Origin: an uncultured virus (IMG/VR IMGVR_UViG_3300050035_000427)
Lineage: Duplodnaviria; Heunggongvirae; Uroviricota; Caudoviricetes
DNA length: 20,000 bases
Direction: 5' to 3' (one strand)
Virus record (IMG/VR): IMGVR_UViG_3300050035_000427
Shown: in pieces, positions 3 through 17,870 of the stretch
Layout of the letters: each line of letters begins with the position of its first letter
How positions within the stretch are numbered: the stretch's first letter is position 1
Notes under the pieces: model-generated
What the model was told of the DNA's origin: nothing
The model's database searches: none
What the model saw: the letters and a program-made list of their open reading frames with translations, nothing else
Made by a program: the position numbers and the translations under genes

Positions 3-1946
3 TCAATCTGTGCAAGAGTGAATGCAACAAAGTACATCAAGCAGACGACTGCTGTGAACATTGATCCCTGGAATTCAACATGTGGATCTACTGGAGGAAC
101 CTTTGGGATTCTCTGGTGCACTGGAGGCACGGATTATCAGCCCTCGTCTTCGTCGAGCAGCTATGTCTCGGCGGAAACTCTGGACAACACGGCTGTACAG
201 AATGCACTGAACTCTTGTCCCAGTGGTCAGGGAGTTGAATTGATCCCGGGCACAAGTGGTCAAAATGCTTTCGTCCTCGCGCCGTTCAGCATCGTAAACA
301 GTTCTGGAGCAGGAGTAAATCTCATTGTTGATGCAGGCATTCACGTGTTTGCCTCGCGCAATCTGTCTGACTACGGTGGCACCAACTGTGGACTGACAAC
401 TAACTCTACCAGTGATTGCAATCACTGGATCACTTCGCCCAGCACGACTGGCGCTGGCATCTATGGCTATGGAGTGCTTGATGGACGTGGATGGTCTGCT
501 TACATCGGGCAAACAACTCATGGATTCTATGCCAATCGCATTCTAGCCTACTGTGATGCTCATGGTGGAGCCATAGCTGGATCTCCCGGTTGCCCGAACA
601 CAACTTCTGGTGTGAACTCTTACGGGCCAAACGGGATCAATCTGATTGGCACAACCAATTTCACCATGTACAAGATCTCATTGTGGAACAGTGGAAACTT
701 CCTTATTAACTGGCAGAGTGGCAATGGGTTCACTGCCTGGGATGTGAAGCTGATCGCTCCGTTCGAAGTTTCGAATACGGATGGTTGGGATCCTCTCAAC
801 TCGACTAATGGTACGTTCACTCACAGCTTCATAAGTGTTGGTGATAACCATATGGCTGTGAAAGCAACATCAGGAGCTTCCTCCAACATCACGTTCTCAA
901 ATTCGCAAACCGGCGCTGGAATTGGAGTGGCAATTGGCACGAATGCTACAAACGGGATATCCAACGTCCTGGTAGATACTTTGGTGCAAAATGGAAATCT
1001 CTACAGCACTCAGAGCGCAGGAATAATGATTGGATCGAGCACCGCAGACGGTGGCCTTGTCAACAAAGTGACCTATCGGAACGTCTGCATGGTGAACGAG
1101 TACAACTCGATTCGTTTATACACCAACTATGGCGGTAACACTGGGTCAAATATTCCTGTCTATCAAAACATCCTGCTGCGTAACATCACTGTGTTGCCCA
1201 GTACTGCTCCCTACACCACAGGCAACTCAGGCAGATATACCTTCCAGGGATTAAGTGGACATCCAATAATTGCCCAAATCGACAACTTGCACATCCTGGG
1301 TACAAATCAAGGTGTCGCTGCTCAGTCAGGAGTAACGACTGATCAGTACTCGGCCATATACCTTGGTCCTGGGACGGTCGATTCCACGCTTCTAACCCAG
1401 TTTTCTGGTGGTACAGGAGTCACTACCTCTGGATCCACCACTTCCACTACGCAGTACGCTTGCACCAGCACAACCTGGCAGCCACTGATTGGCGAATTGA
1501 ACATCAAGACTTCGGTTTCCAACAACAATCAAACAGCGACTGTGATAGCCTTGGCTCCGTTCACCCTACAGGCCGTCCTACAGCCATCGACAGCAATCAG
1601 CACAAAGGAATCTCCGGCTCTCACAGCCTCAGTGAATTTCTATGACAATTGTTTCACAACTCCGACAAGTTGTTCACCAATCGGAACTGTTGCGCTTTCA
1701 GGAGATGGGACATATGCTGCCTATACTCTATCCAGCGGAACTTCACTGGGAACTCACAACTACATAGCTTATTATCCAGGAGATTCGAATTATCCAGCAT
1801 ACACATTTGGATCAGTCACGGTCACTGCAGTAACAGCGCCACCTGCTGCAAAGTCGTATGCACCCATTGTGATTGGTGAATTGGTGACCCCGGCAGGTTT
1901 CGAACCTGCGACCCTCTGCTTAGAAGGCAGATGCTCTATCCACTGA
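3..1946 (+). CDS. GH28 polygalacturonase-like beta-helix protein with C-terminal Ig-like domain (probably 5'-partial; possible virion depolymerase)
   Basis: Motifs NTDGWDP and GDNHMAVK match GH28 NTD/GDD. Beta-helix repeats are present. The C-terminal YIAYYPGDSNYP is typical of bacterial Ig-like group 3 domains. The frame is open to the window start. The last ~21 codons run antisense through tRNA-Arg. Confidence 0.75.
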   Translation, partial: SICARVNATKYIKQTTAVNIDPWNSTCGSTGGTFGILWCTGGTDYQPSSSSSSYVSAETLDNTAVQNALNSCPSGQGVELIPGTSGQNAFVLAPFSIVNSSGAGVNLIVDAGIHVFASRNLSDYGGTNCGLTTNSTSDCNHWITSPSTTGAGIYGYGVLDGRGWSAYIGQTTHGFYANRILAYCDAHGGAIAGSPGCPNTTSGVNSYGPNGINLIGTTNFTMYKISLWNSGNFLINWQSGNGFTAWDVKLIAPFEVSNTDGWDPLNSTNGTFTHSFISVGDNHMAVKATSGASSNITFSNSQTGAGIGVAIGTNATNGISNVLVDTLVQNGNLYSTQSAGIMIGSSTADGGLVNKVTYRNVCMVNEYNSIRLYTNYGGNTGSNIPVYQNILLRNITVLPSTAPYTTGNSGRYTFQGLSGHPIIAQIDNLHILGTNQGVAAQSGVTTDQYSAIYLGPGTVDSTLLTQFSGGTGVTTSGSTTSTTQYACTSTTWQPLIGELNIKTSVSNNNQTATVIALAPFTLQAVLQPSTAISTKESPALTASVNFYDNCFTTPTSCSPIGTVALSGDGTYAAYTLSSGTSLGTHNYIAYYPGDSNYPAYTFGSVTVTAVTAPPAAKSYAPIVIGELVTPAGFEPATLCLEGRCSIH

Positions 1947-1957
1947 GCTACGAGGCC
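1882..1957 (-). tRNA. tRNA-Arg(UCU)
   Basis: Reverse complement GGCCTCGTAGCTCAGTGGATAGAGCATCTGCC-TTCTAA-GCAGAGGGTCGCAGGTTCGAAACCTGCCGGGGTCACCA folds as a full cloverleaf with encoded CCA. Confidence 0.96.
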
Positions 1958-2187
1958 ACGACTTCTTCAGGTAATGGATCGCGGCAATACTGCCTTAGAT
2001 TCCGATCACAAGACCCGATGCTCTTGTAATTTATCCTACCCTCTCGCAGTGTCATGTGATTGCAATCACTGGGAGTGTCCTCATTCTCGAGACATTCATC
2101 TTCCCAGTAGCACACTGGACAGATTTCATACACATGACGCACGTCTTCGAGAGTGTGATTACCGCAACAAGGACAAGGAAATAGCAT
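1948..2187 (-). CDS. CPCC-family cysteine-rich protein
   Basis: CPCCG...EICPVCYWED motif. The stop codon lies inside the 5' end of tRNA-Arg(UCU). Confidence 0.85.
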   Translation of the reverse strand: MLFPCPCCGNHTLEDVRHVYEICPVCYWEDECLENEDTPSDCNHMTLREGRINYKSIGSCDRNLRQYCRDPLPEEVVAS

Positions 2188-2200
2188 GTCTCACCAAACT

Positions 2201-2277
2201 TGGTGACCGTGGAGGGGATTGAACCCCCGACCTGCGGTTTAGGAAACCACCGCTCTATCCAACTGAGCTACACGGTC
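2201..2277 (-). tRNA. tRNA-Arg(CCU)
   Basis: Cloverleaf with GACCGTG/CACGGTC acceptor, anticodon loop TT-CCT-AA and CCA end. Confidence 0.95.
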
Positions 2278-2438
2278 ATGCCTAACTTCTCTTTCAGGTA
2301 CTCTCTCATCTGATACACTTCGTTCGGCTTGCACCAGATGTACACCGGACCCGTTGGTGCGGGTATAAGGCTCTCAGCAAATGCTCTTTGGAGCATCTCC
2401 AACGTGATATCTCCCGCATTGGATTGTTTCAGTTCCAT
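2268..2438 (-). CDS. Hypothetical protein (56 aa, MELKQSNAG...)
   Basis: ORF between two tRNAs. The ATG at 2438 was chosen because the longer ORF would read through tRNA-Lys. The stop lies inside tRNA-Arg(CCU). Confidence 0.55.
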   Translation of the reverse strand: MELKQSNAGDITLEMLQRAFAESLIPAPTGPVYIWCKPNEVYQMREYLKEKLGMTV

Positions 2439-2446
2439 GGATGTTA

Positions 2447-2522
2447 TGGTGCGCCCGAAGGGACTCGAACCCCCAACCAACTGGTTAAAAGCCAGATGCT
2501 CTGACCATTGAGCTACGAGCGC
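2447..2522 (-). tRNA. tRNA-Lys(UUU)
   Basis: Cloverleaf with anticodon loop CT-TTT-AA, GGTTCGAGTCC T-arm and CCA. Confidence 0.96.
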
Positions 2523-2590
2523 ACAGTGCGTTTGCCAGGCTCGTCTGAAGGTTTTCGCATTGTGACACTCCTCTCTCAAAACTGATCTTA

Positions 2591-2634
2591 GAACCGGATC
2601 AGGGATTCCGGCAGGTTGTTAGCTGATCCGGTTC
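2591..2634. repeat. 12-bp perfect inverted repeat (GAACCGGATCAG / CTGATCCGGTTC) with 20-nt loop
   Basis: Arms read directly at 2591-2602 and 2623-2634. Confidence 0.7.
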
Positions 2635-2772
2635 CTCGATTGATCAGGAGCGTTGAACTAGGTTTACCGAACTAGACGATCCGGATTACATGAGCACGGA
2701 GTGCTCGATGCGCGAATAGCCTCATCCTCTGTCTGAACCTCTACCTGAACAACTCTCCTGAACCTCTAAACT

Positions 2773-2821
2773 TGGGGCCGAATCGCCTCGTGCACAGACG
2801 ATATCTACCTCCGACTCGGCC
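2773..2821 (-). ncRNA. 49-nt mini-tRNA-like RNA with His identity elements
   Basis: GGCCGAGUCG/CGAUUCGGCC stem directly followed by CCA (G-1:C73-like). Inner hairpin UCGU-CUGUGC-ACGA. Same CCA-AGTTT trailer as neighbouring tRNAs. Confidence 0.5.
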
Positions 2822-2834
2822 AACATCGGTCATC

Positions 2835-3365
2835 TCAATAGAACAGGTACTTCTTCCACTTTTCCATGCCGGCACCCATAGAACGAATCAGGTTCCGGTT
2901 GGTGTGAATGGTCAATGGACGAGGGTAGCGAATCAGTTTCATGTCCTTGATATCGCTCAGATCCCTGTCGCCCTTCTTCTGGTTGCAAGCCTGACAAGCC
3001 GTGACCAGGTTCTCCCAGCAGTTCCTTCCACCCTTGGACTTCGGTACAACGTGGTCCCAGGTGAGATTCTTTGCTGAGAACTGAACACCGCAGTACTGGC
3101 AGGTGTAACCGTCGCGAAGGTAGATGTTCCGTCTGCTCAACTCCTGCTGACGGTGTGGCACCTTCCGGTACTTCACCAGCCTGACTACGCAAGGAAGAAA
3201 GAATCCTGGACGAACCAAGAGGTCATACTCTTCCTCAGACTTGGCAACTCCCTTGATTACCATGCACAGTGCCCGCTGAGCACTCGCATAGCGCAGCGGC
3301 TCGTAACTGGCATTCAGTACGAGAACCGGAGTCGACTTGATGAGAGTGTTGGTTGCGGACAACAT
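2835..3365 (-). CDS. HNH endonuclease (VLVLNASYEPL family)
   Basis: RDGYTCQYCG...DHVVPKSKGG...WENLVTACQACNQKKG motifs, with upstream SD AAGGA. Confidence 0.92.
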   Translation of the reverse strand: MLSATNTLIKSTPVLVLNASYEPLRYASAQRALCMVIKGVAKSEEEYDLLVRPGFFLPCVVRLVKYRKVPHRQQELSRRNIYLRDGYTCQYCGVQFSAKNLTWDHVVPKSKGGRNCWENLVTACQACNQKKGDRDLSDIKDMKLIRYPRPLTIHTNRNLIRSMGAGMEKWKKYLFY

Positions 3366-3387
3366 GGTGGTTTCCTTTCTTGAAAAA

Positions 3388-3421
3388 TGGTGGAGGATCG
3401 GTCCGGAATGACTTCACCCCC
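3388..3421 (-). ncRNA. 34-nt Ala-type (G3:U70) minihelix resembling fused tmRNA termini
   Basis: GGGGGUGAAGUCAUUCCGGACCGAUCCUCCACCA: G1-C72, G2-C71, G3-U70, G4-C69, G5-C68, then A73-CCA and a U-rich trailer. Confidence 0.45.
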
Positions 3422-3425
3422 AAGT

Positions 3426-4052
3426 TCAGGCTGCCGACTTGATAGAGTCTAAAATTCTCACACATCTGGTCAAGTACCTGCTTCCTGAAGAATCACTCAA
3501 TCCGACTTTTCTTAATGCTTGAGAAACAGTTTCAGACGTTCTTAGAGCTTCAAGCAACTGTTCATCTGAAATTCTTCCTTCGCTACTTCTACCCACTTTG
3601 TTTCCGCAATAGGTGGGCAACTGACTGTCACAATTGGGACAAATACCTCTGAAGTTACTGCGAGAATTGTTGGATCGCACACCATCTATGTGATCTAGCC
3701 GAAGAGATATGGGTTTTCCATTCCACTCGTCAATCCCACAGATTAAGCACTTTCCTCCTTGTTCCCTTACAACCCTTTCCTTCTTACTGCCATACCCTAG
3801 ATCTTCAAAGGGAGTAGCAGCTGATCTGGCGAGTATCTTGGCAGCCCGTTTCTTTATCGCCTCTGCTGACTGAGAATTTTCTCGAAAGGTGACGTACTTT
3901 TCATGATGTTCGGAGTACGCCTTCCTGCTCTTCTCACTCCTGCTCCGATTTACCTCCGGAGTCCAGGTCCTTGAATGACTACATTTGGAAGAGCAGAAAT
4001 TTCCTTCTCCGTATGAGCCATCATGTTCCTTACCACACTTCTTGCAGATCAT
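3426..4052 (-). CDS. Free-standing HNH homing endonuclease with N-terminal Cys cluster
   Basis: CKKC...FCSSKC N-terminus and CLICG...LDHIDG...NNSRSNFRGICPNC. SD AAGGAG. Lies directly 3' of tRNA-Met. Confidence 0.88.
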   Translation of the reverse strand: MICKKCGKEHDGSYGEGNFCSSKCSHSRTWTPEVNRSRSEKSRKAYSEHHEKYVTFRENSQSAEAIKKRAAKILARSAATPFEDLGYGSKKERVVREQGGKCLICGIDEWNGKPISLRLDHIDGVRSNNSRSNFRGICPNCDSQLPTYCGNKVGRSSEGRISDEQLLEALRTSETVSQALRKVGLSDSSGSRYLTRCVRILDSIKSAA

Positions 4053-4093
4053 TCTAAGGGACTCCTTATACTAAAGAATCCCCTAGTTCAAAT

Positions 4094-4171
4094 TGGTCGC
4101 AGTGAAGGGATTTGAACCCCCGACATCTTTCTTATGAGGAAAGCGTTCTCACCAGGCTGAACTACACTGCG
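4094..4171 (-). tRNA. tRNA-Met(CAU), elongator-type
   Basis: Cloverleaf CGCAGTG/CACTGCG with loop CT-CAT-AA. C1:G72 is paired and there is no GGG/CCC anticodon stem, so it is not an initiator. Confidence 0.9.
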
Positions 4172-4206
4172 ATTTATTCTTCGAACTACACTGCGATTTA
4201 TTCTTC
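4159..4206. repeat. 24-bp perfect tandem duplication (GAACTACACTGCGATTTATTCTTC x2) spanning the tRNA-Met 5' end
   Basis: Copies at 4159-4182 and 4183-4206. Confidence 0.9.
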
Positions 4207-4207
4207 G

Positions 4208-4538
4208 TCATTTCCGTTCATCAAGTTTCTCCTGGTGGCATTCCAAACACTTCTGCTTGAGAGGCCACTCGTTGTTACACGTCGTGACCTCTGTTGAGTT
4301 GCATGAAGGACAGTGAATCGAGGCCTTATCCAGCCATGCGAGCAGTTCCTGAAACTTCCTGTCGTCCTGCATATTCGGCCTTGATGTACTCAACTTCCTT
4401 GCTGTTGCAACTCTCGAGCTTCCGCCCGACCTTCCAATCCTTCTTGCGCTGCTCGATGACAAACTGAGTCCAAGTGTAAGAAGACGAGTAACTCGACTTC
4501 TCCTCGTAGCAGCGGAACCAAAGACCGTTGAAGTTCAA
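4208..4538 (-). pseudogene. Hypothetical CxxC/CxxC protein, possibly split by a frameshift near 4372 (or two small genes)
   Basis: ORF 4326-4538 reads plausibly to ...YIKAE. It appears to continue in another frame as MQDDRKFQELL...CPSC...CLEC. Confidence 0.35.
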
Positions 4539-4541
4539 ATA

Positions 4542-4817
4542 CTATCCGTCATACCACGAACGAGGGACCTCCCCACCTGGGAGACTTACCTGCAGTTCTT
4601 GACAGATGAACCTTGCAACATCTTCCGGATGGACTTCTCCGTCGCTCGTCTTCTTCCAGCGACCCCGGTCGATGTTGTCTTGTGACAAACCCATCAACTC
4701 ACTCAAATCCTTGTGATGCATCCGACCATCCGGAAATCTCACGAACAAGTCGGCCTTGCCAATCTTGAAGAGGAACGTCACTCCTCGAACTACGATCCTA
4801 CGCATGCGGGACTTCAT
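4542..4817 (-). CDS. Hypothetical protein (91 aa)
   Basis: ORF with SD AAAGG, co-oriented with the operon. Confidence 0.65.
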   Translation of the reverse strand: MKSRMRRIVVRGVTFLFKIGKADLFVRFPDGRMHHKDLSELMGLSQDNIDRGRWKKTSDGEVHPEDVARFICQELQVSLPGGEVPRSWYDG

Positions 4818-4971
4818 GAGGACCTTTCAGTGTCTTTTCCATCCTGGAGAAGCACCCTTCGAGTTGAATCAACGCCACGACACCAACTACAGCCAGACTG
4901 ACAAACATCCCCACTAAACATCCGAACAGAAAGGCAAGATGCACCAGAGCGGAAATCTCATCAGGGTTCAT
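4798..4971 (-). CDS. Small membrane protein (57 aa, MNPDEISALVHLAFLFGCLVGMFVSLAVVGVVALIQ...)
   Basis: Translated by hand (not in the ORF track). One hydrophobic segment; overlaps the next start. Confidence 0.55.
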   Translation of the reverse strand: MNPDEISALVHLAFLFGCLVGMFVSLAVVGVVALIQLEGCFSRMEKTLKGPHEVPHA

Positions 4972-5121
4972 GCCATTCTGATACTGCGTTTCGCTTCTCC
5001 AGCGAACTTTTACCTGCTGCGAGAGAGAGACGGACGGTTGTCGATACGTTTCAACCCACGCTCAAAAGAGCGACATTTGATCGAGGCCAGGTGCCGGTTG
5101 ACAATCCACCACGTGCCTCTT

Positions 5122-5180
5122 CCCAGGATAGACGCGCCTCTCCGATCAGGACTGTTCCGACCACCGGAGACTACCCTAGA
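5122..5180 (-). ncRNA. Two-stem hairpin within the RNA operon
   Basis: CUAGGGUAG/CUAUCCUGG and UCUCCGGU/AUCGGAGA stems. The G-U pairs work on the minus strand. Confidence 0.35.
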
Positions 5181-5188
5181 CTAAACTT

Positions 5189-5596
5189 TCACCACTCGAA
5201 GTCCTTTGCAAGATGAACATTCTTCACCTGCATATTCTTCGTCGGAGTAAATCTAAGTGTCACAGTTCCGCCTCCTTGAAATTGTTGGATCGGTAACCAG
5301 TAGCACTTTTCTGTAGCGGGCAAGTAAGCAACTACCACATCAATCTCTTCAGACGTGTACTTCTTCTTGTATCCGCTATTTCGGCATTCAGCCGATAGAC
5401 CCACTTCAACAGAATCCTTCGTCAAGCTACAGCTGCAATACTTCACTTGAACCCTGAGAAGTTCCTTTCCGTTGTCGACCACCAAGTCGTACCTGGCGTC
5501 TACAGAAGGAACGCTCACAATCCATCCCAACTCGGTGGCTCGGAGCATGACTTTCAGCTTTCCGATCTCACCCTTTTGATGAGTGCTTGCTAGCAT
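5189..5596 (-). CDS. PD-(D/E)XK endonuclease, group I intron-associated (I-Ssp6803I-like) family, free-standing
   Basis: HQKGEIG...SVP...RYDLVVD...RVQVK...Y...EID motif pattern, adjacent to tRNA-Lys. Confidence 0.88.
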   Translation of the reverse strand: MLASTHQKGEIGKLKVMLRATELGWIVSVPSVDARYDLVVDNGKELLRVQVKYCSCSLTKDSVEVGLSAECRNSGYKKKYTSEEIDVVVAYLPATEKCYWLPIQQFQGGGTVTLRFTPTKNMQVKNVHLAKDFEW

Positions 5597-5618
5597 ATCT
5601 CATCAATACTCAAAACTT

Positions 5619-5694
5619 TGGTGCGAGCGGAGGGGATCGAACCCCCGACGTCCCGGTTAAGAGCCGGTTACTCTACCAACTGAGTTACGCTCGC
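5619..5694 (-). tRNA. tRNA-Lys(CUU)
   Basis: Cloverleaf GCGAGCG/CGCTCGC with loop CT-CTT-AA and CCA. Confidence 0.96.
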
Positions 5695-5707
5695 ACATCT
5701 ACAAAAA

Positions 5708-5788
5708 GGCTCTCCGGGGAGGTGGGCCATCCCTCCATACACTCCTCGCGAAAGAGAGTGTGTCTTGCCACTATGAAACGACCGGAAA
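5708..5788 (-). ncRNA. Degenerate tRNA-Glu(UUC)-like RNA
   Basis: Acceptor UUUCCGG/CCGGAGA + G-CC(U). D-arm with AGUGG. Extended anticodon arm ACACUC/GAGUGU around CUUUCGC. T-stem GGAGG/CCUCC with a non-canonical 9-nt loop. Confidence 0.55.
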
Positions 5789-5798
5789 CTTACAAATT

Positions 5799-5976
5799 CA
5801 ACGCCGGTGCTCTATCCAGGCTGAGCTACCACCAAGCGAATGGACCGTTCCGCCGACCTTGATTCCCCTCTAGAAAAGGAATCCTGGGACTCTTAGGGCA
5901 TGGTCACTTGCTCTGTCTAAACGGGTGGGTTGGATTCGGACCAACGACCACCGGCTGCTTGTTGGGCGGAATGATC
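5799..5976 (-). ncRNA. Circularly permuted tRNA-like RNA (T-arm, acceptor stem closed by a 90-nt insert, D-arm), YrlA/Y-RNA-like architecture
   Basis: The tRNA 3' half (GCCGGUGGUCGUUGGUCCGAAUCCAACCCACC, 5955-5924) precedes the 5' half (GGUGGUAGCUCAGCCUGGAUAGAGCACCGGC, 5833-5803). GCCGGU/ACCGGC and CCACC/GGUGG pair. Confidence 0.75.
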
Positions 5977-5989
5977 ACACCCGAATCTT

Positions 5990-6064
5990 TGGCTCCTGAG
6001 GAGGGATTCGAACCCACAACCATTCGGTTAACAGCCGAACGCTCTGCCGTTGAGCTACCCAGGA
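5990..6064 (-). tRNA. tRNA-Asn(GUU)
   Basis: Cloverleaf with loop CT-GTT-AA and G73-CCA. Confidence 0.96.
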
Positions 6065-6071
6065 ACACTTG

Positions 6072-6266
6072 TTATACTGCAACTTCCTCAATCTCGATCT
6101 GAACCTTCTTGCTGCTCATCACTTCGTCAGCAACACCGAAGGCAACCTCATAATCCTCAAATCTGGTTGCCTCGTAGCGATATCCAAACCTCAAAGTGCG
6201 GGTGATCGCAGCATCGTCTGAGATGACATAGTTCGATGTATTCGGTACTCTCAAGATGTGCTGCAT
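6072..6266 (-). CDS. Hypothetical protein (64 aa)
   Basis: ORF with SD-like GGTAAGG, between tRNAs. Confidence 0.6.
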   Translation of the reverse strand: MQHILRVPNTSNYVISDDAAITRTLRFGYRYEATRFEDYEVAFGVADEVMSSKKVQIEIEEVAV

Positions 6267-6312
6267 GACCTTACCCTCTACTCCGATTTATGAGATCGGG
6301 TACTGCTGAATT

Positions 6313-6388
6313 TGGGGAGTCTAGAGGGATTCGAACCCTCGACTACTGGTGCCACAGACCAGCGTTCTACCGCTGAACTACAGACTCC
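6313..6388 (-). tRNA. tRNA-His(GUG)
   Basis: Cloverleaf with encoded G-1:C73, loop CT-GTG-GC and CCA. Confidence 0.96.
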
Positions 6389-6399
6389 ATGAAATTGTT

Positions 6400-6473
6400 T
6401 GGCTGCCTCTGTAGGATTCGAACCTACATATCCTGGTCCAGAGCCAAGTGTCCTGCCATTGAACGAAAAGGCA
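6400..6473 (-). tRNA. tRNA-Gln(CUG)
   Basis: Cloverleaf with U1-A72, loop CT-CTG-GA and G73-CCA. Confidence 0.95.
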
Positions 6474-6494
6474 ACATGTGAAACCGAACTTGTT

Positions 6495-6573
6495 GGGCAG
6501 GAACGGTGGGAATCCATTGACCTCCTGGTTGGAGCCAGAAGGCGTGGAAACCCATTCTTCCGCTGAACTGCCC
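6495..6573 (-). ncRNA. ~80-nt rod-like hairpin RNA with apical CUCCAA loop
   Basis: Successive stems GGGCAG/CUGCCC, GCGG/CCGU, UGGG/CCCA, UCCA/UGGA and CCUUCUGG/CCAGGAGG. Confidence 0.5.
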
Positions 6574-6575
6574 GA

Positions 6576-6743
6576 CCGGGCAATGACTTCTAAGCTACAT
6601 TCGCCGAAGCGAATGCTGGTCAACCTTCTCACCAGATCCCCGCCGTTGAAGGCGGTGCTTTGTTCGGACTCGCCACGGAGGTTCCAGCCTCATGGGTCTG
6701 TCCTGGTCTAGTCGCACTGGCCCCTGGAAGGTCCATTGCCCGG
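6576..6743 (-). ncRNA. 168-nt structured RNA, apparently a circularly permuted raiA-motif-like RNA
   Basis: Closing stem CCGGGCAAU/AUUGCCCGG and a cUUCGg hairpin. Blocks CUUCCAG.GGC.AGUG...AGACCAGG, AGUC...CAAAG and GCUUAGAAGU resemble recalled raiA conserved blocks, in permuted order. Confidence 0.6.
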
Positions 6744-6788
6744 AAACTTTATTGCACGAACGAAAAGTAGACTAAGAGGCGGTGCAAA

Positions 6789-6935
6789 CTACTTGATGAA
6801 CAATCCGTCAATCACGCTCTTGGCTTTGTCTTCCGTTCTGACATAGTTCCGGACCACGTAGGTCTCGGCTATGATGCGAAAGCCGCCATCTCGTAAAGGA
6901 TGAATCGTATACCCGCGATATATTGTGTCTTCCAT
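6789..6935 (-). CDS. Hypothetical protein (48 aa, MEDTIYRGYTIHP...)
   Basis: Small phage-type ORF. The start was trimmed to avoid reading through tRNA-Trp. Confidence 0.55.
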   Translation of the reverse strand: MEDTIYRGYTIHPLRDGGFRIIAETYVVRNYVRTEDKAKSVIDGLFIK

Positions 6936-6976
6936 ACGAATCTCTACTGGAAAACCCAGCATATCGGTTAATCTTT

Positions 6977-7051
6977 TGGCGGGAAATAGAGGAATCGAAC
7001 CCCTGAGTTCTGATTTGGAGGCAGACAGTTTACCAACTAGCTTAATTTCCC
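6977..7051 (-). tRNA. tRNA-Trp(CCA)
   Basis: Cloverleaf GGGAAAT/ATTTCCC with loop CT-CCA-AA and G73-CCA. There is one anticodon-stem mismatch. Confidence 0.92.
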
Positions 7052-7091
7052 GTTGAATCCAGACTTTCGGAACCATTACTGGAGGTTCCAA

Positions 7092-7622
7092 TTGAAATCT
7101 TGCGAAAATTGCACTACTCTTCACGATGGTACTTATGGTTCTGGTCGTTTCTGTTCAATTGGCTGTGCTAGAGGCTTTGCCACCAAAGCATCTAGGTTAA
7201 AAATCAACCAAGAAGTGAGTGCTAAACTGAAGGGTAAACCTGTTCGTAATCGTAGTCCTCATAGTAAAGAAGTGAAGGAAAAGATACGCAGAAGCATCAA
7301 TCAAGGATTTCAAATCAAATTCCAAAAGTGGATAGATGACTGGCTTTCCGGAAAGATACATCCCACAAGAGCCAACTATAGAGTAGTGCACAAAGCATTA
7401 GCCATTTTAAGAGGAGATAAGTGTGAACAATGCGGTTGGAAAGAGGTTCATCCGAAAACTGGACTTATCCCAGTGCAACTTCATCATATTGACGGTGATG
7501 GAGATAACAATTCACCAGATAATGTGAAACTGTTGTGTCCAAGCTGTCATTCACTCACTCTCAATTTCATGGCTTTGAACTACTACAACAAATTGTCAAA
7601 GATCACGCCGTTGTTCGCCTGA
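7092..7622 (+). CDS. Free-standing HNH homing endonuclease, paralog of 3426-4052, antisense to the tRNA operon
   Basis: GGAGG + TTG start at 7092. Motifs CENC...HDGTYGSGRFCSIGC and CEQCG...LHHIDGD..NN.PDN..LLCPSCH. Confidence 0.88.
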   Translation: MKSCENCTTLHDGTYGSGRFCSIGCARGFATKASRLKINQEVSAKLKGKPVRNRSPHSKEVKEKIRRSINQGFQIKFQKWIDDWLSGKIHPTRANYRVVHKALAILRGDKCEQCGWKEVHPKTGLIPVQLHHIDGDGDNNSPDNVKLLCPSCHSLTLNFMALNYYNKLSKITPLFA

Positions 7623-7639
7623 GCGAATCAATTCAAACT

Positions 7640-7716
7640 TGGTCGGGCCACTAGGGTTCGAACCTAGGACCTTGGGATTATGAGTCCCTTGCTCTAACCA
7701 ACTGAGCTATGGCCCG
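7640..7716 (-). tRNA. tRNA-CAU, probably Ile2 (lysidine) type
   Basis: Cloverleaf with loop CT-CAT-AA. The GGGCC acceptor, TGGTTAGAGC D-arm and GACTCATAATC anticodon context resemble Ile2. Met cannot be excluded. Confidence 0.88.
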
Positions 7717-7744
7717 AACTCGAACTCGGCTCGTGCAAAAACTT

Positions 7745-7821
7745 TGGTGATCCCGGAGGGAGTTGAACCCCCAACCTTATGGTTCGTAGCCATACGCGCT
7801 ATCCAGTTGCGCCACGGGACC
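7745..7821 (-). tRNA. tRNA-Arg(ACG)
   Basis: Cloverleaf with loop CT-ACG-AA, an A20-containing D-loop and CCA. Confidence 0.96.
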
Positions 7822-7840
7822 ACTCTCAAAATCCATCCCT

Positions 7841-7876
7841 AAAAACCAAATCCCGCCAGCTTGTGGGCTTGGCGGG
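7841..7876 (-). terminator. Intrinsic terminator (attenuator) upstream of the first tRNA
   Basis: CCCGCCAAGC-CCACAA-GCUGGCGGG followed by AUUUGGUUUUU. Confidence 0.75.
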
Positions 7877-7933
7877 TGGAAACTCTGAAAATACCAGGTA
7901 GGATTACGCACTACCTCCAGAATCCAGACCGCC
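7871..7933 (-). promoter_or_regulatory. Antiterminator helix overlapping the leader-peptide 3' end and the terminator 5' arm
   Basis: GGCGGUCUGGAUUCUGGAGGUA (7933-7912) can pair with UAUUUUCAGAGUUUCCACCCGCC (7893-7871), sequestering CCGCC of the terminator. Confidence 0.7.
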
Positions 7934-7999
7934 GATGGCATGCTGATTTCGCTGCCACTGCTTATGCTGTCTCATCGAATTGGTCTGTATCTGTTTCAC
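7904..7999 (-). CDS. Leader peptide, 31 aa (MKQIQTNSMRQHKQWQRNQHAIGGLDSGGSA)
   Basis: SD AAGGGAG, GTG start, and TAA inside the antiterminator loop. Its codons match the downstream tRNAs. Confidence 0.75.
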   Translation of the reverse strand: MKQIQTNSMRQHKQWQRNQHAIGGLDSGGSA

Positions 8000-8020
8000 A
8001 GTACTCCCTTGACAAATTTC

Positions 8021-8054
8021 ATAATACTACGGTTTCCTCTGATCGGGGAAACTA
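8021..8054 (-). promoter_or_regulatory. Putative promoter of the leader/tRNA operon (-10 TATTAT; upstream TAGTTTCCCCGATC)
   Basis: The -10 lies ~11 nt upstream of the leader SD. The upstream motif is shared with 9601-9614. Confidence 0.45.
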
Positions 8055-8061
8055 TTTTTGC

Positions 8062-8185
8062 CAGTGATTACGGAATCCTTTGTAACAAAACACTCAACCA
8101 TGAAGGATTCGAACCTTCGCTATGAATGCACCCAATCATGACACTGTTCAGCACCAGGGGTCTACAAAGGATTCCGTAATCACTG
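8062..8185. repeat. 23-bp perfect inverted repeat enclosing 78 nt that contains an isolated tRNA T-arm
   Basis: CAGTGATTACGGAATCCTTTGTA (8062-8084) pairs with 8163-8185. Minus-strand GAAGG-TTCGAAT-CCTTC at 8102-8118. Confidence 0.9.
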
Positions 8186-8477: not shown

Positions 8478-9551
8478 TCATCGGTCAGTTGGGCATCGGC
8501 CATCGTTCAGACGAAGAGTGAACTGAGCGATATGAACTGGCTCATTCTCTTTGATGGCCTTCTGCCAGTAGAACTGATACTGACTGGCGTAACCTGCCAG
8601 CTGGGCATCCTCCAGTGTGAACTTCACAAAGGGGATGAGATTTTTGCCTCCCTCGATGCCGAACAAACGGGGACCAAGAGCCTTCCTGATTCTGGCATAG
8701 GTGTAGCTGATGTAGATGCCAGGACTGGTGACGTTGCACCAGTTCTCAATGTCGAGGATGGTGTTCTTCCCGACTGCAGCTGAGTTGAACTGCCAGGCCA
8801 GGACGTTCCATGCCAACTGAGGAGAGACTACAGCGTTCTCGCTGGGCTTGATCACCTTGCTAACTTCTTCGAACAGTTCCTCAGCCGCCACAAGGTTCGC
8901 TTCTGCTCCCTCCTTCTCCCGGGAGCGCATCTTCTTGTAGTCCTTGCCCAGAACCAGACCCATCGGCTTGTGCTGATCTCCCAATCCCAGGCTCTTGAAA
9001 TGTTCGTGTTGCTCATACCCTGTCAGATATAAGTCCGGAGCACAGAATTCTACGAAGCTCAGATCGTGTGCTGCATAGGTTGGACGACCGTCAGAGCGGT
9101 ATATCACGACACCGTTGAACATCTTACAGCCTTCGTACTCTCCGGTGCCGGGAGTCAGTGTGTATCCTGTGGGCGGCTTCATGTCCCTATCAAATAAGAT
9201 GAATGGCTGATATCCGGAGATGTGACACCAGTTGTTGAATGCCGTGTACGCTCCCTCTTTCTCGCCAATGGTGACTCCCAGCATTGCGACTGGCTTGGCT
9301 TTGGTGATATTTGCCAGCGCGGCGGCGATTGCCAGGTTCTTGATGTGCCCGACATGAAGGTCTTTGTTGAGGTTAGGTGAGAATCCATCCAGAGTTATCT
9401 CGGATGGTTTGGCTTTCTCAGGCCATTCCCAGACGGTTGGCGTTACATGGTAGTTGTGGTAAATACCCACAGATTCATAACGAAATCCCTTGAGATCGAG
9501 TGGAGTGAGTGAAGTGACACCAACTCCCACTTGTTCAGGTATAGGATGCAT
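8478..9551 (-). CDS. argS: Arginyl-tRNA synthetase-like protein, compact and C-terminally truncated
   Basis: FSPNLNKDLHVGHIKN (HIGH), RSDGRPTYAAHDL, EQHEHF, KKMRSR (KMSKS-like), GIYISYTYARI and EPVHIAQF. SD GGAGAGG precedes the ATG at 9551. Confidence 0.85.
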   Translation of the reverse strand: MHPIPEQVGVGVTSLTPLDLKGFRYESVGIYHNYHVTPTVWEWPEKAKPSEITLDGFSPNLNKDLHVGHIKNLAIAAALANITKAKPVAMLGVTIGEKEGAYTAFNNWCHISGYQPFILFDRDMKPPTGYTLTPGTGEYEGCKMFNGVVIYRSDGRPTYAAHDLSFVEFCAPDLYLTGYEQHEHFKSLGLGDQHKPMGLVLGKDYKKMRSREKEGAEANLVAAEELFEEVSKVIKPSENAVVSPQLAWNVLAWQFNSAAVGKNTILDIENWCNVTSPGIYISYTYARIRKALGPRLFGIEGGKNLIPFVKFTLEDAQLAGYASQYQFYWQKAIKENEPVHIAQFTLRLNDGRCPTDR

Positions 9552-9572
9552 GAGATCTTCCTCTCCAACCAC

Positions 9573-9640: not shown

Positions 9641-10348
9641 ATGAAAAAGACAATCCGTCTCACCGTGGGCAATGTCGAAACCTCTGGCGCGGAAGCTATT
9701 GTCAACGCAGCGAACAGGCATCTCAAGACTGGTCGCGGTGTATGCGGTGCGATCTATGCCGCCGCTGGCGTGACAGAGCTTGAAACCTATGTAGCAGATC
9801 ACTTTGAAGGCTGCCGCACCGGCAGAGCCGTGGTGACTCCAGCGTTTGGCATCAGCGGATCCAAGTATGTCCTCCACGCTGTTGGTCCGATCTACTCCGA
9901 ATACACTCCCCTAGAGGCGGCTCGCCTCCTCCGCAAAGCCTATCACTCGATCTTTGAACTCTGCTACTCGCTGGGAGTCAAGAATGTCGGCGTCGTGGCG
10001 ATCTCGTCTGGTATCTACGGGTATCCGGTTGAAGACGTTGCGAACATCGCGGCTGACGAGGCCATGCGCACCCCTTACAAGGGCGACATCACCTTCTACG
10101 TCTGGCAGGACAATCTGGCCGTCTTCGAGAAAGCCTTCGCTTCGATCCTCACTCCAGCAGTTCCTGTGATCGTCGATAAGTGCGCTGTATGCGATTTGCC
10201 GGCTGACCACATCGACCATATCGGCCTTCTTGGAATGGGAATTGACCATCCTTTCAAAAGTTCACTGCAGCCAGTTACACCAGTATCTGATCCTGTGGAC
10301 GCGAGCACGCGCAAGGTCTTCACGATGGATGACCCAGCAGTAGTCTGA
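9641..10348 (+). CDS. Macro-domain protein (ADP-ribose hydrolase, YmdB/MacroD-like) with C-terminal extension
   Basis: AIVNAAN..L..GRGVCGAIYAAAG, HAVGP and AISSGIYGYP motifs. Confidence 0.93.
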   Translation: MKKTIRLTVGNVETSGAEAIVNAANRHLKTGRGVCGAIYAAAGVTELETYVADHFEGCRTGRAVVTPAFGISGSKYVLHAVGPIYSEYTPLEAARLLRKAYHSIFELCYSLGVKNVGVVAISSGIYGYPVEDVANIAADEAMRTPYKGDITFYVWQDNLAVFEKAFASILTPAVPVIVDKCAVCDLPADHIDHIGLLGMGIDHPFKSSLQPVTPVSDPVDASTRKVFTMDDPAVV

Positions 10349-17015: not shown

Positions 17016-17870
17016 ATGTTCGTTCAGTATGAGTACAAAGAGACACTCTTGAAATTGGATAATTTGTGTCTGAATTTTGGGCCGAAGCCAATTCTCAAGG
17101 GAGTATGTGCTGAGATCAAGGATATCTACATTCCTGGCAGAACGACAGGTCAAATTGTCGGATTCCTTGGCCCATCCGGAGTTGGTAAGACTCAGTTGCT
17201 TCGTCTTCTGGCTGGCCTGCATGACCCCACCAGCGGACAGGTTCTTCTTGCTAATGGAGCAGAGACTGGCAAATACGACGGAACCTTTCATCCCGTGTCT
17301 GCTGGAGAAGTCGGAGTTGTGGCTCAGAACTACCCTCTGTTCGAGCATCGTTCGGTATTTGGCAACCTGATGTTGCCGGCGCTCGCTCATGAACAGAATC
17401 GTGCAACAGCCAAGGATACGGTCCTCACTCACCTGGACAAGTTCGGGTTGCTTGACAAGAAAGATCTCTATCCCTGTCAGCTTTCTGGCGGTCAGCGCCA
17501 GCGGGTTGCCATTCTCCAAATGATCATCTGCAAAGAGAGATTCATTCTCATGGATGAACCTTTTTCTGGACTTGATCTGATTGCCATTGAAACCATCATG
17601 GAGACTATTCAGGAGGCAGCAAACTTGCGTGAGGACAACACTGTTATCATTGTCACTCACGACGTCACAGCGGCTGTCTCGATTGCCGACCACATCTGGC
17701 TGCTGGGTAGGGACCATGATGCTGAGGGCAAGGTAATTCCTGGTGCACGCATTGTCGAAACTTACGATCTGCTCGCTCGTGGTCTTTGTTACGAGCCGGG
17801 AATTATCACTGCCAATCACGGGTTCACAGACACAGTGCGTGAAATCAAAACCAGATTCAGAACTCTATAA
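17016..17870 (+). CDS. ABC transporter ATP-binding protein (NitT/TauT family)
   Basis: Walker A GPSGVGKT, signature LSGGQ, Walker B ILMDEPF and H-loop VTHD. Confidence 0.96.
   Translation: MFVQYEYKETLLKLDNLCLNFGPKPILKGVCAEIKDIYIPGRTTGQIVGFLGPSGVGKTQLLRLLAGLHDPTSGQVLLANGAETGKYDGTFHPVSAGEVGVVAQNYPLFEHRSVFGNLMLPALAHEQNRATAKDTVLTHLDKFGLLDKKDLYPCQLSGGQRQRVAILQMIICKERFILMDEPFSGLDLIAIETIMETIQEAANLREDNTVIIVTHDVTAAVSIADHIWLLGRDHDAEGKVIPGARIVETYDLLARGLCYEPGIITANHGFTDTVREIKTRFRTL

Follow-up and report, generated by a model that had tools for sequence, protein, structure and literature searches.

The DNA analyzed here, referred to as the window, is a 20,000-nucleotide (nt) stretch of an uncultured virus of the Caudoviricetes and corresponds to the reverse strand of positions 58359-78358 in the 187,058-bp IMG/VR record IMGVR_UViG_3300050035_000427 (G000). 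The completeness of this record is estimated at about 60%, and near-identical DNA is contained in peat and wetland metagenomes. The element in question is a short leader region on the minus strand, which lies directly downstream of a compact arginyl-tRNA synthetase (ArgRS) gene (8478-9572, minus strand) and immediately precedes an array of 11 transfer RNA (tRNA) genes that opens with a tRNA-Arg. An earlier note, made from the sequence alone, had read this region as a leader-peptide attenuator that could switch on the array when its tRNAs are depleted. The 11 genes (1882-7821, minus strand) encode Arg-ACG, a CAU tRNA (likely Ile2), Trp, Gln-CUG, His, Asn, Lys-CUU, a second CAU tRNA, Lys-UUU, Arg-CCU, and Arg-UCU. 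ARAGORN and Rfam agreed on these genes, which run from 7821, the start of tRNA-Arg(ACG), to 1882, and both matched the anticodons that the note had listed. The CAU tRNA at 7640-7716 gave its best match to features annotated as tRNA-Ile in Escherichia coli records, which supports its identity as an ATA-reading Ile2 tRNA; the same comparison gave no match for the second CAU tRNA.

The leader contains an open reading frame (ORF) at 7904-7999 (minus strand) with a GTG start, 31 sense codons, and a TAA stop, and a Shine-Dalgarno-like AAGGGAG (8004-8010, minus strand) is seen in the sequence 4 nt before the GTG. Codons 2 to 20 (7940-7996, minus strand), which we call the sensor segment, include six CAG, two AAT, and two CAT codons as well as AAA, AAG, ATA, ATG, AGA, CGA, and TGG. 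Under strict wobble, 16 of these 19 codons are read by tRNAs of the array, and the count rises to 17 if one CAU tRNA is Ile2 and reads ATA. The codon match of the leader to its array is far beyond chance: 17 of 19 was the unique maximum among 374,004 19-codon segments in the six frames of the 187,058-bp record, and at the amino-acid level (15-residue segment) the leader ranked third among 3,645 short ORFs. The sequence elements described in the earlier note were all confirmed. The ORF, its GTG, and the AAGGGAG were where it had placed them, and its count of 17 matching codons was reproduced with the Ile2 assumption for ATA. The leader addresses 10 of the 11 tRNAs, as claimed, the exception being Arg-CCU; the array, said to decode about 15 codons, reads 14 under strict wobble and 15 counting ATA; and codons 21 to 31, described as unmatched, include none that the array reads. 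The leader therefore has both an ORF with start signals and an enrichment of cognate codons, and its translation is predicted.

Between the ORF and the tRNA genes lies a predicted intrinsic terminator (7841-7876, minus strand), which consists of a 9-pair stem with one bulge (7852-7876) followed by an interrupted run of T (T-run; 7841-7851). The hairpin and T-run end 19 nt before tRNA-Arg(ACG), in keeping with the GC-rich terminator that had been noted about 20 nt before the first tRNA. In folding calculations, the stem-loop had a free energy of −15.1 kcal/mol and a probability (P) of 0.94 in free RNA. A candidate antiterminator hairpin (7871-7933, minus strand) has closing pairs between GGCGG, in codons 23 and 24, and CCGCC of the terminator 5′ arm, and it folded with −26.3 kcal/mol when the RNA was cut before the terminator 3′ arm. 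For the ribosome-mask calculations, either a 28-nt footprint or everything up to the front edge of the ribosome was masked at each codon, and the probability of the terminator pairs was computed. In the truncated RNA, the candidate hairpin formed when the ribosomal A site was at or before codon 18 and was gone from codon 20 on, which fits the end of the sensor segment.

The same arrangement was found elsewhere in the record. Its 31 tRNAs lie on a single strand in four arrays sorted by isotype (55.4-57.2, 70.5-76.5, 154.0-156.2, and 181.6-182.2 kb). Besides the array in the window, one array holds Tyr, five Leu, and Ser-GCU, all of them tRNAs with a long variable arm; one holds Val, two Gly, Asp, three Ala, and two Glu, all for GNN codons; and the fourth holds three Pro and Phe. 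Inspection of the 400 bases before each array showed two sister leaders. The leader of the Tyr/Leu/Ser array (genome positions 55297-55389) is a 30-codon ORF in which Leu, Ser, and Tyr make up 18 of the 29 residues that follow the start, and the leader of the GNN array (153824-153928) is a 34-codon ORF in which Val, Gly, Asp, Ala, and Glu account for 20 of 33. Each was the top 19-codon segment genome-wide for its own amino-acid set (17 of 19 in both cases, with runners-up at 15 and 16). Both have a Shine-Dalgarno sequence and are followed by a GC-rich hairpin and a T-run, and in both a 10-base stretch of the leader is exactly complementary to the terminator 5′ arm. When the upstream RNA was shuffled 1,000 times and its pairing to the 5′ arm was compared, the observed pairing was matched by 3 shuffles for the GNN leader and 28 for the Tyr/Leu/Ser leader. 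For the GNN leader, the predicted P of the terminator was 0.90 in free RNA, 0.00 to 0.06 with a ribosome on codons 2 to 19, and 0.96 from codon 26 to the stop. For the Tyr/Leu/Ser leader, it was 0.01 to 0.2 with a ribosome on codons 8 to 16 and 0.96 afterwards. In these models, the two sister leaders show the textbook folding pattern of an attenuator, the P of the terminator in free RNA being at least 0.9 for both.

A side observation concerns the serine codons of the Tyr/Leu/Ser leader. It has seven Ser TCN codons, six of them within codons 2 to 21, yet the only Ser tRNA of the record is Ser-GCU. A tRNA that reads TCN may be encoded in the portion of the genome that is missing, or may have been lost; alternatively, host tRNAs may be sampled by this leader as well. 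Internal candidate leaders before tRNA-Trp and tRNA-Asp were rejected; they have a TTG or GTG start and no terminator.

Searches against published phages gave no close DNA relative by megablast, and distant blastn gave matches to tRNA genes only. A pattern scan returned two related viral contigs, one near-identical (G001) and one close (G002). The latter has an identical GNN leader and an array with an additional Val-GAC, which reads the five GTT/GTC codons of the leader that are unread in the genome of the window. The differing tRNA complement of this array suggests that tRNA genes are gained and lost inside arrays. Both contigs are too similar to the record to serve as a test of co-variation. 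A looser promoter pattern yielded 114 stretches, and among the 80 loci fetched, the motif stood before a matching tRNA array only in the known relatives L016 and L071.

More distant genomes were reached through the synthetase. A scan of viral contigs with the single ArgRS protein sequence gave no match, and tblastn against published phages gave two uncultured huge phages only, with no cultured relative. With an alignment of ArgRS homologues as the query, 45 huge-phage loci were obtained; the homologues lie on contigs of up to 648 kb. These loci were screened at every tRNA with a gap of 130 nt or more in front of it, and the best short ORF in the 400 nt before that tRNA was taken. The residues of the ORF were scored against the amino acids of the tRNAs that follow, and its rank was determined relative to all short ORFs in the DNA concerned. 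Top-ranked leaders were found in five huge-phage records whose ArgRS is 30 to 35% identical, and after the other tRNA clusters of these five records were added, about 20 leaders had a composition that follows the array. For example, a Leu/Ser repeat precedes an array of Leu, Ser, Ser, Ser, Leu, Leu, and Ser; a leader of Ile, Tyr, Gly, Ala, and Glu precedes Glu, Tyr, Gly, Ile, and Ala; and a leader of His, Lys, Phe, Ser, and Trp precedes a matching array. One leader had unexplained Thr and Tyr residues, and the extended array revealed Tyr, Tyr, Thr, and Thr tRNAs, so that the prediction held. The strong external cases have 52 to 83 nt between the stop codon and the tRNA. In six of the seven external leaders inspected by eye, a GC stem is followed by seven or eight U, and the distal part of the leader repeats the terminator 3′ arm.

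To avoid circularity, candidates were also selected by structure only (an ORF stop 45 to 95 nt before a tRNA, plus a T-run), and 23 of 116 gap starts passed. The window leader and the GNN leader fail the T-run filter and are absent from these 23. The mean match of the structure-chosen candidates to their arrays was 0.479, versus 0.212 ± 0.029 when permuted across genomes and 0.283 ± 0.038 when permuted within genomes, and the observed match was reached in none of 20,000 permutations of either kind. The earlier note had asked whether leader codons in related phages co-vary with the array, and in distant huge phages the composition of the leaders does track array content. At codon positions 2 to 21 of the 16 good leaders, 221 of 316 codons match at the amino-acid level, and 202 of these are also readable by the anticodons of the array; the unreadable ones are mostly in the sister leaders of the window genome. 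In ribosome-mask folding, a switch was clearly predicted for roughly half of the well-matched external leaders and for none of the others.

Leaders of this kind were not found in every large phage. Three cultured jumbo phages (Klebsiella FBKp24, Stenotrophomonas RAS14, and Pseudomonas phiHQ) had no leader-like ORF and no rank of 1 at 27 gap starts. This result was counted in favor of the attenuator interpretation because the pipeline gives no top matches in these three phages. The design of a leader before an array is patchy, not universal.

Taken together, these data make it probable that the element in the window is a ribosome-mediated (leader-peptide) transcription attenuator before a phage tRNA array. 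The strongest support lies outside the window, in the sister leaders and the external leaders. A transcript begun upstream of 8020 would carry the 31-codon ORF, the first 20 codons of which would sample the codons of 10 of the 11 downstream tRNAs. If these are read fast, a ribosome at codons 20 to 31 would cover the 5′ strand of the antiterminator, so that the terminator at 7852-7876 would form and transcription would stop before the tRNAs. If any sampled codon is slow, with little charged cognate tRNA, the ribosome would lag, the antiterminator would hold the terminator 5′ arm, and the polymerase would enter the array. This sign of regulation, in which stalling leads to read-through, is proposed because of the positions of the antiterminators. 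Because the products are the sensed tRNAs, the circuit would amount to negative feedback on decoding capacity. The window leader would be one module of a set in which isotype-sorted arrays are gated by their own matched leaders. For the window leader itself, we infer from the sequence that the ORF is translated, that transcription terminates behind it, that regulation of the proposed sign takes place, and that it works by kinetic competition. Candidate triggers of the sensor are a mismatch with host codon usage early in infection, loss of host tRNAs, poor charging, and defense nucleases.

RNA-library contigs have some bearing on this. Six metatranscriptome runs contain part of the window, and four were compared; all are assemblies, the contigs of which show neither ends, strand, nor level, and contig stops and uncovered parts of the window were not used as evidence. 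In three of the four runs, contigs span the leader, the terminator, and the first tRNAs (7384-8149, 7739-8140, and 7739-7993). They are weak evidence of transcription, with DNA carry-over being possible. All four runs have C in place of T at 7984, which changes codon 6 of the leader from ACC to GCC. The array reads all but two codons of the sensor segment, and codon 6 is one of these two; the sensor codons are intact in this variant. Sequencing-adapter letters abut phage sequence at 7021, 7376, 7998, and 8276 in RNA contigs, and one of these junctions adjoins the leader start codon.

Several observations weigh against attenuation. Most of them concern the window leader. Its T-run is broken by GG, and a simple consensus scan of the window omits the terminator at 7852-7876. 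The note had described a helix that sequesters the CCGCC of the terminator; the GGCGG/CCGCC pairing is present in the truncated RNA, but it amounts to 5 bp, holds only 5 of the 10 arm bases, and was equaled in 733 of 1,000 shuffles, which is not beyond chance. Folding with and without a ribosome footprint, which the note had proposed as a check, gave it no support, since the P of the terminator was 0.89 to 0.94 at every ribosome position and the window leader showed no equilibrium switch. In the E. coli trp leader and other classical attenuators, the terminator is more stable than the antiterminator, and they work kinetically. For this reason, we regard the missing equilibrium switch as a gap in support and not as a contradiction. 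The core of the interpretation offered in the note is well supported by the sister leaders and the co-variation across phages, whereas the antiterminator that it proposed for the window leader is at chance level.

The remaining points lie beyond the window leader. The codon match of the sister leaders is imperfect, with six Ser TCN and three GTC codons for which the record has no reading tRNA. The Pro/Phe leader was not counted, as it scored 5 of 18 and has no terminator, and the counterpart array in the related G002 has no leader. About half of the well-matched external leaders have no equilibrium switch. Four further huge phages with an ArgRS, among them the one with the most similar ArgRS (58%), were also screened, and none of the 72 gap starts scored ranked better than 11; the screen has little power in these four because their arrays mix most amino acids. 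Finally, three RNA contigs from three studies end at 8140-8149, inside an inverted repeat and upstream of the presumed promoter motif (both described below).

These weaknesses leave room for other explanations. The ORF could be a chance short ORF in front of an ordinary terminator of the upstream ArgRS transcript, with no regulation at all. One would in any case expect a terminator behind the ArgRS gene, short ORFs are plentiful (249 of at least 30 amino acids in the window), and the antiterminator of the window leader is at chance level, but such an ORF would hardly be the unique best of 374,004 segments. The pattern is also repeated before two other arrays of this genome and about 20 in other phages, with a match that 0 of 20,000 permutations reached, and phages without leaders, used as controls, give no such matches. 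A chance ORF is already disfavored and appears highly improbable. The statistically supported antiterminator/terminator pairs of the sister and external leaders, placed as in classical attenuators, argue in turn against a scheme in which the ORF is translated and codon-tuned but control lies in how the tRNA precursor is processed, in how stable it is, or in the access of Rho, the hairpin being a fixed partial terminator or a processing signal. This scheme draws on the window leader, which lacks an equilibrium switch and a significant antiterminator, on several external leaders that likewise lack a switch, and on the RNA-library contigs that cross the terminator. However, a missing equilibrium switch is weak evidence, given that the E. 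coli trp terminator is also stabler than its antiterminator, and we consider this scheme improbable.

A different question is what the attenuators mainly detect. Phage tRNAs can offset anticodon nucleases, and the leaders might serve chiefly as counter-defense sensors that respond to the cleavage of host tRNAs by such nucleases or comparable defenses and switch on the matching replacement array. Such a sensor would report slow decoding of any cause, sorted arrays would let one leader address one tRNA set, and the tRNAs sensed here include those for Lys, Arg, Gln, Asn, His, and Trp. Yet no defense or anti-defense gene was linked to the arrays in the window, and the leaders cover all amino-acid classes, including some that are not known to be nuclease targets, which general supply control fits better. 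Moreover, loss of tRNA, low charging, and a mismatch with host codon usage are indistinguishable from sequence. A primary role in counter-defense is therefore unlikely. The same holds for its wider form, a modular decoding homeostat in some huge phages, in which each isotype-sorted array would be gated by its own multivalent leader and the leaders would jointly detect depleted host tRNAs, including those depleted by anticodon nucleases, and switch on the needed set as a counter-defense circuit; this is conceivable but doubtful. Attenuation in response to decoding capacity in general remains the preferred interpretation.

The proposed attenuator has clear counterparts among known systems. Multivalent leader-peptide attenuators control enterobacterial operons, such as the thr leader (Thr/Ile) and the ilvGMEDA leader (Ile/Leu/Val), and leaders of this class also precede trp, his, leu, and pheA. 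Like these, the phage element would have a short leader rich in regulatory codons with a terminator just downstream, an alternative helix that uses the terminator 5′ arm and is masked once the ribosome nears the end of the ORF, and a single leader that senses more than one amino acid. Unlike these, its targets are tRNA genes and not biosynthetic enzymes, so that the product would be the sensed molecule; it would sample up to ten tRNA species; it is viral; and it is one of several modules, each assigned to a sorted array. There is no sequence similarity between the phage leaders and known leaders, as judged by the lack of a match to any Rfam leader family.

Leader-peptide attenuation is also found before aminoacyl-tRNA synthetase genes, as in E. 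coli pheST. In bacilli, hisS paralogs are preceded by a His leader, as described in a survey of bacterial attenuators (PMC2965389). The phage leaders would resemble the pheST and hisS attenuators in that the speed of ribosomes on cognate codons determines the level of a translation component, but those control one enzyme for one amino acid, whereas a phage leader would control the genes of tRNAs for many amino acids. That survey contains no instance of "tRNA gene," "tRNA operon," or "phage," and the hisS leader is its nearest case (PMC2965389). A T-box likewise allows terminator read-through when a particular tRNA is inadequately charged, but it binds the uncharged tRNA directly, needs no ribosome or ORF, and senses one tRNA. 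In an Rfam search over the window, only tRNA reached the gathering score, and the four leader regions gave no T-box or other Rfam cis-regulatory family at E values up to 1. A literature search, with subscription journals largely outside its range, gave no description of leader peptides or attenuation before tRNA genes in phages or elsewhere. To our knowledge, ribosome-mediated attenuation is known for biosynthetic and synthetase genes and not for tRNA genes or viruses. The class of mechanism is classical, unlike the tRNA-gene target, the viral carrier, the breadth of a single sensor, and the layout of one leader per array.

If the interpretation is correct, large phages would adjust the dose of their tRNAs in this way, and the sorting of the genes into blocks by isotype would find an explanation. 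Each leader would be a direct read-out, in sequence, of the codons that limit the phage in its host. The long-standing puzzle of phage-encoded tRNAs, which may serve to compensate for codon usage, to shut off the host, or to evade defenses, would become testable through the trigger of each leader, and the leader would represent a compact natural multi-input sensor of decoding capacity.

The region upstream of the leader shows two promoter-like features. A distal 11-nt motif (8052-8062, minus strand) is an exact 11-mer that occurs only at genome positions 70297 and 153772. A second 11-nt motif (8020-8030, minus strand) contains TATTAT (8026-8021), a putative −10 element, and both of its genome-wide matches with at most one mismatch precede leaders. 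The two-part motif, with starts 32 nt apart, is identical before the window leader and the GNN leader and is found nowhere else in the record; a second comparison showed this similarity as well. The putative −10 proposed earlier is thus represented by TATTAT, but no sigma-70 −35 element lies at a spacing of 17 nt, and the promoter scan gave nothing at this site. A perfect 23-bp inverted repeat (8062-8185, minus strand) abuts the shared motif and encloses 78 nt with a T-arm-like hairpin (GGTTCGAATCC type). Its fold has a free energy of −57.8 kcal/mol and a z score of −6.25, and none of 200 shuffles folded as well. Neither ARAGORN nor Rfam, at E values up to 1, identified the hairpin as a tRNA.

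The ArgRS ORF as called encodes 364 amino acids, compared to 394 in a 100%-identical database protein, and its true start may lie further upstream. Endonuclease genes, three of the HNH and one of the PD-(D/E)XK type, are located between tRNA genes of the array (2835-3365, 3426-4052, and 5189-5596 on the minus strand and 7053-7622 on the plus strand). On the strand opposite to the array are genes for a glycosyl hydrolase of family 28 (18-1946), a macro-domain protein (9641-10348), and an ABC-type ATPase (17016-17870), all on the plus strand. In the GNN array, a weak tRNA-like match of 23.5 bits, which is below the cut-off, lies right after Val-UAC (1084-1148 of locus L172, equal to 154083-154147 of the record). 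A 14-nt motif follows the first tRNA in both the window array (around 7725-7740, minus strand) and the GNN array (around 3305-3320 of locus L008) and may be a processing signal or a repeat.

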